Positions 60,232-64,000 are shown, numbered from the stretch's first letter. The stretch is 64,000 nt of DNA from an uncultured Nitrososphaerota archaeon (GCA_963799845.1 CAWCYI010000004.1:640001-704000), one strand, 5' to 3'. The notes: a model not told the origin generated them from the sequence alone. Made by a program: numbers and translations.

Positions 60232-61485
60232 TCAGTTGTCGATTGCCGGCCTCGTTTGGATCATTGATTTACGAGCTCCATCTTGTCTAGAGGCAGTTCC
60301 GAAAACGCTCCTGAACTTGTTTCTGTCGAAGAATATGTCTATGCCGGCGAAAACGTCGACGAGGGGGAGGGCAATTTTCATTCCTTCAGCTAAAGGCCGA
60401 TAATCGGGACTATCAGCCTGCGGATTCAGCCAGACCACTCTCCTTACCTGACGACCTATTCCCCGCAACCCATTCCTGAAAGTGTCGAGATCGCCCAATT
60501 CCCAACCGTCGCTTATTATGACGAAGACAGTGGAGGATCGAAGAACCCCCGAATATTTCAAAAGAAGTTCCATGAAAGCAGATCCGATTCGCGTCCCGCT
60601 GCTCCAGCTATCGACGTTCCTTGAAATGAGATCTGAAGATTCCCTCAGAGACTTTCCCTGCAGATATCTGTTCAGAGGTACTACTCTAGTACTGAATCCG
60701 AAGATGGTTGACCCGCGGATCGTATTGCTCATATGGTACACGATCTTGAGAATCTGGTTGCTGTAAATATCCATAGAACCGCTAATATCGCACAGGACGA
60801 CGATTCTAGATTTTGAGATCTTTTTCGATCTGAGTTCGATCTCAATTTCTCGGCCGCCTGTTTTCAAACTAGTTCTGAGCGTCCGTCGGAAATCAAGCTC
60901 ACGACCTTCGTACATTCCATAGCGCCGCCCCGGCAAAGTCGCGGTTACTCTTGCAAAACTTCTCAATCCGCGTTTTAGACGGAGTCTGTCCTTCGCTTCG
61001 TTCAGCTCGGCGAAACTTTTGCGGCTCTGCGTTTCAAGTGGGCTGTAAACTGCAAGAATTTTGTTATCCAGGTCGGCGCCCGGAGCTGCTGACTGGAACA
61101 TGCTTCCGGCGGTGACTCTTCCCCTGCCTATCCGGTTGGAATTTGGAGATTTTAGTGATCTCTCAATTTTTTCTCGTGGTAGACTAACCCTACCTAGAGG
61201 ATTTCTTCTTCCGGCTTTTGGATCAAGCCAGAACGTTCTGAAGAGAGTCTCAAACCGTTCGTAATCTTCAGACCTCTTCACAAGGGTTGTTCGGAGTACC
61301 GTGCGAAAGTCTTCCAATTTCGAAAGATCGGTTATCGGGATCGCTTCAGCCATATCTAGAGTCTCCGACGGAGTCACTTCGAACGATTCCATGCGAAGAA
61401 GCTGACTGAATCGAACGAGCCGATTCAAAAAAGGCACTTCTTGTTCGACCTTTGAATTAACTTCGTCAGAAAGATCAGCGGTCAT
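60232..61485 (-). CDS. CoxE-like VWA domain protein
   Basis: LDFRRTLR, LCDISGSM (MIDAS), FSTR, WSSGTRIG, ISDGW, WLNP. Confidence 0.9.
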   Translation of the reverse strand: MTADLSDEVNSKVEQEVPFLNRLVRFSQLLRMESFEVTPSETLDMAEAIPITDLSKLEDFRTVLRTTLVKRSEDYERFETLFRTFWLDPKAGRRNPLGRVSLPREKIERSLKSPNSNRIGRGRVTAGSMFQSAAPGADLDNKILAVYSPLETQSRKSFAELNEAKDRLRLKRGLRSFARVTATLPGRRYGMYEGRELDFRRTLRTSLKTGGREIEIELRSKKISKSRIVVLCDISGSMDIYSNQILKIVYHMSNTIRGSTIFGFSTRVVPLNRYLQGKSLRESSDLISRNVDSWSSGTRIGSAFMELLLKYSGVLRSSTVFVIISDGWELGDLDTFRNGLRGIGRQVRRVVWLNPQADSPDYRPLAEGMKIALPLVDVFAGIDIFFDRNKFRSVFGTASRQDGARKSMIQTRPAIDN

Positions 61486-62408
61486 TTCGGAGACTCTTCA
61501 AGGATGTTTCTGAGTCTTTCCTCGTCGAAAAGAGCGAATTCATCCGAATTTTTCAGTATGCAACTGAGAGTCTGTCTCGCCACAACGGGAGTTAGTCGAT
61601 TTTCTCCCAGGACTTGTAAAGCGGAAGCCCAGTCCAGTGTCTCGGAAGTTCCCGGCTTACGAATCACATCTTCGGACGAGCGTATTTTTTCTACGGCCGC
61701 AACGACATCCTGAGCAAGTTTTTCTTCGATCCCTGGAACTTTCAATTTCACTATTGCCAGCTCCTTCTCGAAAGATGGATATGACAGATATAGGTAGAGA
61801 CAGCGGCGTCTCAGGCCGTCGCCGAGCTCGCGAGTGTGGTTGGAAGTGATGATAATTATTGGGCGATGTTTTGTCTTAAATGTCCCAAGCTCTGGAACAG
61901 TCACTTGAAACTCGGCAAGGAGCTCGAGTAGAAATCCCTCGAATTCTTCGTCTGCCCTATCTATTTCGTCGATGAGTAAGACCGGCGGAAGGCTACCCTC
62001 GTCGAGTACGGCGTCAAGAAGTGGGCGCTTCAATAGAAATCTTTCGCCGAAAATCTCTTGCTCTAACTTATCGGGAGATGACTTCTGCTCTTCGATCCTT
62101 ATGTGCAGAAGCTGTCTCAAGTAATCCCATTCATAGATCGTTGAATTCGCGTCCAAGCCTTCGTAGCACTGCAAACGAATGAGCCTGGTACCCAGTCCCT
62201 CGCTAAGAACCTTCGCAATCTCAGTCTTTCCACATCCAGGATCTCCTTCGATCAACAATGGCTTGCGCAGTTTCAAGGAGAGAAAAACAGCCATTGCTAT
62301 CTGGGGGTCTGCGACATACTTAGCTTTCTCGAAAAGTCGCGTCAGATCTTCAATGGTTTCAATCCCGATAGTTTGATCGGGCCTATTCACAGGACTCCCT
62401 ACTTGCAA
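61482..62408 (-). CDS. MoxR-family AAA+ ATPase (CoxD-like)
   Basis: LLIEGDPGCGKT, RLQCYEGLD, LLIDEIDRAD, ITSN, LRRRC. Confidence 0.93.
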   Translation of the reverse strand: MQVGSPVNRPDQTIGIETIEDLTRLFEKAKYVADPQIAMAVFLSLKLRKPLLIEGDPGCGKTEIAKVLSEGLGTRLIRLQCYEGLDANSTIYEWDYLRQLLHIRIEEQKSSPDKLEQEIFGERFLLKRPLLDAVLDEGSLPPVLLIDEIDRADEEFEGFLLELLAEFQVTVPELGTFKTKHRPIIIITSNHTRELGDGLRRRCLYLYLSYPSFEKELAIVKLKVPGIEEKLAQDVVAAVEKIRSSEDVIRKPGTSETLDWASALQVLGENRLTPVVARQTLSCILKNSDEFALFDEERLRNILEESPK

Positions 62409-63017: not shown

Positions 63018-64000
63018 CTAGTGCGTCATCGCACTGACGGACGTCGCGCCGGTTGGTTTACCAGCCATACGTGTTAGATACTTTTGAATGTCGCTCCAGG
63101 ATTTGCCGGCGATCGGAATGCGCTTTTCTCTCTGCCTTTGGAATCAAACCAGATGGCGGTTGGTGTTCGGGTGACTTTGTATTTGTCAGCGAGACTGCCA
63201 CAGGCGTCCATTTCGATTGGTGCTTTTAGTATTGGAATTTTATCGCCGATTGCTTCATTTGCTGCTTTTAGGAAAGGCGGGCAATTGTGCGTGAGATGCC
63301 CAAGTGAGCATATCAAGTCACCATCAACAGTTACGTCAAACACGTCCCCTTTGTAGAAAGTTCGTTTTATTGATTCCAAATTCATGAAATAATAATCTTC
63401 ATCGAGCCACGACATTACTCTTATTTGATTGACAAATGGGGTGAAGGTGTTGCGATATTCTTGTTTGACATTCACACGACGCCCCATTATCACGTCTTCA
63501 CCAGCAGGTGTACCGAGTTGTAACGAACTCAGATAGCCAAGCTTGATTCCCGGAAATTGAAGTCCATGCGCAAGCTCTTTACTAACAGTTGATGATCTGT
63601 GGCCATGAATTTCCGGAGTTCCATCGCCTTCCAGATAGTTTTTCAGCAGTATTGATCCCATTCTGTTTGGAAGCGCCAGTTCCCGCCCGGCAAACGTTTT
63701 CCGATTGCACCTCTTCCAAAATGATGTGCTAAAAAACGCCCCAGCTTCATCGAATACACAAACAACCTAACACCGTCCTTCGTTGATTTAATGCTGTTTG
63801 ACACTTTCAGTCGTTTAAAATGCTGGGATAATTACAAGGCGCCCTCATATTCCAAATTGCTTTTTCCTAGACTGAATAGTACATCCGTCTTTTTTGGCAC
63901 AAATGTACCTTCTGCGAGATACCTTCCCGCAACAGCCAACATATCATCATTAAGCGGGATCCGCTGGACACGTCTGATGCATCTAACTCTGATTCCATCC
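63018..64000 (-). CDS. Thioredoxin-like protein interrupted by a LAGLIDADG intein (5' part outside window; stop and indels present)
   Basis: C-extein C-PPFLKAANE..IPILK..LADKYKVTRTPTAIWFDSKGRE; stop at 63832-63834, indels near 63685 and 63125. Confidence 0.65.
63284..64000 (-). mobile_element. Intein with LAGLIDADG homing endonuclease (C-terminal part)
   Basis: Block C AVAGRYLAEG, block D GAIGKRLP, block E LLKNYLEGDG, block H STVSKELAHGLQF, blocks F/G YKGDVFDVTVDGD..GHLTHN|C. Confidence 0.88.

Follow-up and report, generated by a model that had tools for sequence, protein, structure and literature searches.

A decayed intein at the second active-site cysteine of a thioredoxin-type protein in an uncultured Nitrososphaerota archaeon

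Inteins have mostly been described in replication, repair and nucleotide enzymes. The end of a 64,000 nt stretch of DNA from an uncultured Nitrososphaerota archaeon (hereafter the window; G000:C4:640001-704000, in a 4.6-Mb assembly of nine contigs) raises the question of whether a small redox protein has also served as a host. The original prediction placed here an intein inserted at a cysteine of a thioredoxin-fold protein, and supposed that splicing would rebuild the redox site and could itself be redox-gated. The locus lies on the minus strand and continues beyond the window end, from 63018 to about 64527 in window-equivalent numbering, and was followed into the extension L001 (C4:700001-712000; window coordinate = L001 coordinate + 60000). 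With a probability of about 0.85, we regard it as the relic of a small cytoplasmic protein (~115 aa) that belonged to a rare CPxC-PP family of the thioredoxin superfamily; a class-1 intein with a nested LAGLIDADG endonuclease invaded it directly before the second cysteine of its CPxC, and the element is now dead. The features are collected in Table 1; splice junctions are written with a slash throughout.

Table 1. Features of the relic and its surroundings. Positions are those of the window, continued past 64000 as window-equivalent positions, unless given in L001 coordinates.
Feature	Position	Strand	Remark
CoxE-type VWA protein	60232-61485	-	intact neighbour
MoxR-type AAA ATPase	61482-62408	-	intact neighbour
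TAG stop	63020-63018	-	ends C-extein
C-extein, last part KRIPIAGKSW...SAMTH, 35 codons	63125-63021	-	frame differs from first part
Frameshift 6, one base missing in A-run GAGAAAAGC	63122..63130 (near 63125)	-	identical in X2 record 2
C-extein, first part: Cys+1, PPFLKA..., conserved Cys, RTPT cis-Pro loop	63128..63283	-	
Cys+1 (TGC) right after HLTHN	63283-63281	-	second Cys of CPxC
Intein C-terminal half: LLKNYLEGDG (second LAGLIDADG), block F VFDVTV, block G HLTHN	63284..63685	-	
Frameshift 5, G-rich run CCGGGCGGGAA	63685..63690 (near 63688)	-	identical in X2 record 3
Endonuclease core between both LAGLIDADG motifs	63691..63831	-	
Lesion 4, TAA nonsense codon	63834-63832	-	aligned with Glu of P0002 and P0108; same letters in X2 record 4 and X3 record 5
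Intein part with first LAGLIDADG motif LAVAGRYLAEG	63835..64000	-	gene runs on in L001
Block B TTPDH	about L001 4190	-	aligned with intact inteins
Frameshift 3 (GTAAG; relatives: ...VK-TW-GSY)	near 64222 (L001 4222)	-	identical in X3 record 7 and X4 record 9
Frameshift 2	near 64265 (L001 4265)	-	identical in X3 record 7 and X4 record 9
Intein Cys1 (TGC; CFPRGEE...)	64369-64367 (L001 4369-4367)	-	directly after GGCPL
N-extein, ends ...IDAAGGCPL	L001 4370-4507	-	three-frame reading
Frameshift 1 (inferred)	near 64505	-	ATG frame versus N-extein frame; alignment to relatives only
Likely ATG	64527 (L001 4527)	-	
85-aa ORF upstream of relic	L001 4725-4982	-	possible gene
FAD, 2Fe-2S and molybdopterin subunits (coxM/S/L-type) of a CO-dehydrogenase/xanthine-dehydrogenase-type enzyme	L001 5076-8836	+	intact, just past window

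When the three minus-strand frames were joined with an X at each break, a reconstruction of 511 positions was obtained, which aligned end to end with intact intein-bearing proteins. The C-terminal end of the intein (VFDVTV...GHLTHN, followed directly by a cysteine codon) was seen in this reading as had been proposed, and the N-extein beyond position 64000, for which a C-x-x immediately before Cys1 had been expected, reads ...GGCPL. The two junctions are thus GGCPL/CFPRGEE on the N-terminal side and HLTHN/CPPFL on the C-terminal side, and conceptual removal of the intein yields C-P-L-C-P-P. Of the features of a class-1 intein, the relic has Cys1, the TxxH of what we take to be block B (TTPDH), the Asp of what we take to be block F (VFDVTV), and His-Asn followed by Cys+1; the Cys1 of the relic aligns with that of the intact inteins P0002, P0004 and P0108. 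Both LAGLIDADG-type helices end in an acidic residue and align with the motifs of P0002. The relic's own fragments gave no match to the Pfam LAGLIDADG models and scored below the Pfam cut-offs of Hint_2 (23.3 vs 28.4) and Intein_splicing (13.8 vs 35.8).

Several observations concern the surroundings. The relic is flanked on one side by the MoxR-AAA/CoxE-VWA genes and on the other by the coxM/S/L-type genes, which run divergently from them, an arrangement like that of aerobic CO-dehydrogenase clusters with their maturation genes. The 85-aa ORF upstream of the relic had no Pfam match at E ≤ 0.001. A tblastn search of the G000 assembly found no intact paralogue of the relic.

The host was identified from the part of the gene that follows the intein. 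The ~88-aa C-extein (CPPFLKA..., a conserved Cys, KYKVTRTPT, ...IPIAGKSW...) carries the predicted thioredoxin pattern with its cis-Pro loop (KYKV-x-RTPT). The 195-aa ORF at 63074-63661 was used as a HMMER query against 1.84 billion representative proteins and gave 107 matches at E ≤ 0.001, most of them to the intein part alone. Six short proteins matched the extein part alone. Three of these are intein-free at the splice site and read CPYCPP (P0019), CPHCPPFL (P0076) and CPYCP (P0012) where the relic has (CPL)/CPPFL, so that Cys+1 aligns with the second Cys of the CPYC/CPHC motif, as the original prediction had it; the other three (P0003, P0037 and P0032) are C-extein-only fragments that lack CxxC. 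A family-mate genome, G012, contains an intact 127-aa ORF with CGYC. The relic's C-extein is 52-55% identical to its homologues (P0019) and, being a fragment, reaches 13.7 bits against the 23.5 bits of the Pfam Thioredoxin cut-off. As the relic's fragments lie below the Pfam cut-offs, the family assignment leans on the homologues: P0019, P0076, P0012 and the G012 ORF score above the Pfam gathering scores of Thioredoxin and/or Thioredoxin_2, and none of the four reaches any NCBIfam equivalog cut-off.

The fold points the same way. In the eight-row alignment A1 of the family, T77 and P78 of the cis-Pro loop (RTPT) are invariant. At E ≤ 0.01, a profile of A1 retrieved 119 distinct PDB sequences, with 1j08 at the top (E 1e-9). 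Of the 60 that were listed, all but a few uncharacterised or designed proteins are named as thioredoxins, glutaredoxins or disulfide isomerases. The AlphaFold2 model of P0019 (pLDDT 77.5, pTM 0.71) has the helix-strand order of the thioredoxin fold, with CPYC (residues 34-37) between a strand (25-30) and a helix (37-51), and the Foldseek search with this model returned thioredoxins as top PDB matches (TM 0.67-0.72; 315 matches at E ≤ 0.001). The extein is therefore a thioredoxin-superfamily protein, with its fold as predicted by the model of a homologue. That it might instead be another CxxC protein, a zinc ribbon or an Mrp/ApbC-type ATPase, is suggested by the inteins: the closest one, in P0108 (41.6% identical), lies at CKY/C in a membrane protein with a CPYC zinc-ribbon-like tail, and another related intein lies at CPH/C of Mrp-type ATPases. 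We consider this very improbable, given that the C-extein aligns, cis-Pro loop included, with intein-free proteins above the Pfam thioredoxin cut-offs, and that both the PDB profile search and the fold search led to thioredoxin-fold proteins.

The host family resembles thioredoxins and the archaeal CPYC glutaredoxin-like protein disulfide oxidoreductases (1j08 and 1a8l) in its thioredoxin fold, in the CP[YH]C motif that follows beta-1 and in its cis-Pro loop. Unlike these, its members have a single domain of ~110-127 aa, the CPxC-PP sequence and extra conserved Cys residues, and the family is very sparse. Among 401 genomes of the order, P0019 matched four at E ≤ 1e-6, one of which (G016) encodes an ordinary WCPFC thioredoxin, and the CPxC-PP family was found in G000, G003 and G012 only. 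A search for the conserved pattern with a smaller alignment, A2, led to one confirmed locus out of 38 pattern matches, which is the G003:C21 contig. P0019 is the sole member of its 90% cluster, and a word-index search with it confirmed none of 142 candidates among longer proteins and one of five candidates of near length, which was P0019 itself.

The gene for this protein is broken at several points. Four frameshifts are clear, a fifth is probable near the start, and one codon is a TAA nonsense codon; unless the start-proximal shift is assumed, no ATG, GTG or TTG lies upstream of a TTG at 64414, and the frame has no in-frame start. The splicing that would rebuild the redox site, perhaps under redox control, can accordingly not be upheld for this locus. 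The original prediction suspected sequencing errors behind the breaks, and had restored one A near 63125; relatives read GKEKKR[VI]PIAGKSW here, which matches the restored helix. If all the breaks were sequencing or assembly errors, the gene would be intact in the organism and a functional precursor would be made and spliced. Three of the four clear frameshifts (63125, L001 4222 and 63688) are indeed single-base changes in short homopolymer-like runs, where sequencing errors also arise, and the catalytic residues of both the intein and the endonuclease are all preserved. We nevertheless hold an intact gene to be improbable. The stretch is present in four soil-metagenome runs of one study (X1-X4), X1 being the probable source run, and the contigs from the other three soil samples, which together span lesions 2-6 and both splice junctions, match it with no differing letter and no gap; X2-X4 are of low depth (2-5) and, coming from the same study, not fully independent of X1, and lesion 1 is covered by X1 only. 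Furthermore, one of the lesions is a substitution (TAA vs Glu), and the rest of the window is free of such damage, with 59 ORFs of at least 100 aa covering 84.6% of it. Since contigs of three other samples carry the same lesions to the letter, these are real and not sequencing errors, and the relic is a pseudogene.

Decay is also seen in G003, a genome of the same genus that was assembled independently and carries two copies, both decayed further than the relic of G000. One of them, on C21 (L003/L014), lies beside coxM in the same position as the G000 relic, which suggests that the gene was once part of the cox neighbourhood. Of its intein only a stub is left, ...FDIVFTQEGRIH/CPPFL, from which the terminal Asn has gone; its C-extein is open and in frame, and no ATG, GTG or TTG occurs upstream of the C-extein before the last third of the latter. 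The other copy, on C48 (L011), contains stops and frameshifts. Between G000 and G003:C21 the C-extein has a dN/dS of 0.17 (dN 0.121, dS 0.728, 74 codons). This low value and the catalytic residues still readable in the relic suggest that the gene decayed recently on the time scale of the split between G000 and G003, and independently in each genome.

The same dN/dS value could mean that the C-extein part kept some function. On this account a truncated product, started internally, would still be used without its CxxC, either the 195-aa ORF (endonuclease C-half, intein C-end and part of the C-extein) or a C-extein-only protein like P0003 and P0037. Besides the dN/dS between the two genomes, the database proteins that consist of the C-extein only and lack CxxC (P0003, P0037 and P0032) and the open C-extein of G003:C21 speak for such use. 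It is unlikely all the same, because recent decay predicts a low dN/dS equally well, the C-extein of G000 is itself frameshifted at 63125, the G003:C21 copy has no start codon before the last third of its C-extein, and a thioredoxin fold deprived of beta-1 and CxxC would be no redox enzyme. We therefore retain the reading of the locus as a dead relic. Two other ways of rescuing the gene were rejected. Programmed frameshifting was ruled out by five shifts in different contexts together with the TAA, and the G003:C21 copy does not qualify as a split-intein 'fractured gene', as its intein C-end has lost the terminal Asn and its C-extein lacks an upstream start codon.

What the intact form may have looked like is indicated by P0002, an uninterrupted protein of 521 aa encoded on one metagenomic contig, with exteins homologous to those of the relic and the same insertion point. 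It matched the 195-aa ORF over both intein and extein (E 6e-19, query 5-173), and in turn matched G000 at C4:703143-703682 (E 5e-24) and 703685-704221 (E 5.8e-16, with one TAA inside). Its junctions are ...VGCPG/CLPTGQE...VVHN/CELMG..., and it scores above the Pfam cut-offs of Intein_splicing (36.9 vs 35.8) and LAGLIDADG_3 (27.4 vs 22.5). With P0002 as the representative, the intact precursor would have had ~510-520 aa. The intein Cys1 would attack the -1 peptide bond, the thioester would be handed to Cys+1, the host's second active-site Cys, and the terminal Asn would cyclise, so that in the ligated product CPxC would be restored where helix alpha-1 begins. The endonuclease would presumably have cut intein-free alleles at the DNA encoding G-C-P-x-C-P-P.

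Such a combination is rare. The 90% cluster of P0002 has no other member, and when P0002 was used as a query, 161 proteins matched at E ≤ 1e-5 among 6210 candidates; in the best 120 of these 161, only P0002 itself spans the exteins. Among the 401 genomes of the order, 92 matched P0002 at E ≤ 1e-10 (including G270, which is flagged as unpublished); among the matches listed (39 more are not listed), only that of G000 reaches into the C-extein, and the others are to the intein domain. A second intact case is P0062, a 475-aa metagenomic protein with a classical thioredoxin as host, which scores 60.2 bits with Pfam Thioredoxin. The LAGLIDADG intein that it harbors is unrelated and precedes the first, nucleophilic Cys (...AKW/CVPPDH...VHN/CYPC...), and the spliced product would read WCYPC; the NCBIfam intein N-terminal model begins at residue 22. 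P0062 is thus an independent invasion of the same thioredoxin active site. From P0002 and P0062 together it follows that natural thioredoxin inteins exist at both active-site cysteines, though they are rare.

The relationships of the intein were examined in a tree of 43 rows, made up of inteins cut out by alignment to that of P0002 (score ≥ 380), the relic reconstruction and P0062. The relic intein is 41.6% identical to the P0108 intein over 351 columns and 33.3% identical to that of P0002 over 357 columns; the latter two are 43.9% identical to each other over 360 columns. In the FastTree phylogeny, the relic grouped with P0108 (SH-like support 0.984) and P0002 joined them (0.98), with the P0062 intein distant. 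The branch of the relic is long (1.04 vs 0.30 for P0108), as is expected for a decaying sequence, and makes its exact placement less safe.

The host of P0108 is a membrane protein, in which the junction CKY/C precedes the CPYC zinc-ribbon-like tail. Among the 90 junctions listed for related inteins, at least 14 are of the form C-x-x/C, including those of Mrp-type ATPases (CPH/C; P0111 and L016). As so many junctions have this form, the second Cys of a CxxC is a recurring landing site of this intein lineage, and the unusual part of the relic is its thioredoxin host.

Eight further loci proved to be inteins in other hosts, which are NuoI-like subunits, a dCMP deaminase, an Mrp-type ATPase and a zinc-ribbon membrane protein. 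The 731-aa open frame of L016 (G167:C2) and P0111 are Mrp/ApbC-type P-loop ATPases with the intein at YFVCPH/C...HN/CGEK, the second Cys of a conserved CPxC, and this intein is 39% identical to that of P0002. Four NuoI-like 4Fe-4S subunits of 543-581 aa (L027, L028, L029 and L030, from G206, G020, G200 and G359) adjoin a NuoH-like gene and carry their inteins between CVFCGLC and CVDACPFDAL, inside the iron-sulfur Cys motif. In L026 (G155:C3), a dCMP-deaminase-like protein with a 544-aa open frame, the intein (...GNCA/C...SHN/CCHAEENA) lies beside the zinc-binding Cys motif. The G000 genome itself contains a further intact 522-aa ORF (C6, ~672362-673930; L012 1441-3009, minus strand) with a LAGLIDADG intein at CPH/C; its flanks, ...FECPH and CGRRF...H...H, look like a C2H2-type zinc finger split at the second Cys. 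Within family f9, the P0002 intein was matched at E ≤ 1e-10 in 70 of 97 genomes, other hosts included.

Both the relic (C-P-L/C) and P0002 (C-P-G/C) have an extein Cys at -3 facing the intein Cys1. In the Pyrococcus abyssi MoaA intein, as excerpted in a later article, a native disulfide between Cys-3 and Cys1 forms a 'redox trap' (Callahan et al., 2011, via PMC10663303). Like the relic, the MoaA intein as described there is of class 1 with a Cys1, and an extein Cys lies three residues before it, so that a C-x-x-C spans the extein/intein junction. The upstream Cys of the relic differs in being the nucleophilic Cys of a thioredoxin-type active site, with Cys+1 as its partner; the relic's host is a small redox protein whereas MoaA is a radical-SAM enzyme, and the relic is a pseudogene. 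The trap has also been engineered by placing CPG before Cys1 ('CPGC') in the Ssp and Npu DnaE inteins, according to the passage that quotes this work (Callahan et al., 2013, via PMC10772547). Compared with the design outlined in that passage, P0002 has exactly C-P-G before Cys1 and the relic has C-P-L; the junctions of P0002 and the relic are natural, and their inteins belong to an unrelated lineage and are contiguous, not split, and carry an endonuclease.

It is tempting to suppose from these junctions that intact relatives such as P0002 may be natural redox-gated splicing switches, in which the nucleophilic Cys of the host would lock Cys1 by a disulfide until the cell is reducing, and that the lineage may have moved between the CxxC sites of a thioredoxin, a zinc-ribbon membrane protein and perhaps Mrp/ApbC ATPases; we put this forward tentatively and as doubtful. 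The movement between hosts is suggested by the P0108 intein (CKY/C), which groups inside the two thioredoxin inteins (0.98). If the supposition were true, the intact relatives would be the natural counterpart of the engineered CPGC trap.

Full-text literature searches, exact phrases included, retrieved no report of a natural thioredoxin intein; the papers listed concerned thioredoxin as a model extein in engineering work. The word 'thioredoxin' occurs 0 times in the main text of an intein survey (PMC4760082), the supplements of which may list such hosts, and an actinobacteriophage intein preprint contains 0 occurrences of thioredoxin or glutaredoxin. A natural C-P-x/Cys1 junction in a thioredoxin active site is thus unreported in the papers searched.

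These results have consequences at several levels. For annotation, the locus is to be marked as a pseudogene. The intein in the CxxC site of a thioredoxin-type protein widens the list of hosts, and P0002 offers a natural C-P-G/Cys1 junction on which redox-dependent splicing is testable in a natural protein. On one view, inteins are kept mainly in host genes that are indispensable, and the joint decay of the relic and its host fits this view. The locus is thus an evolutionary snapshot of an intein in a rare, apparently dispensable gene, which decays along with its host and in the congener G003 has been half deleted.
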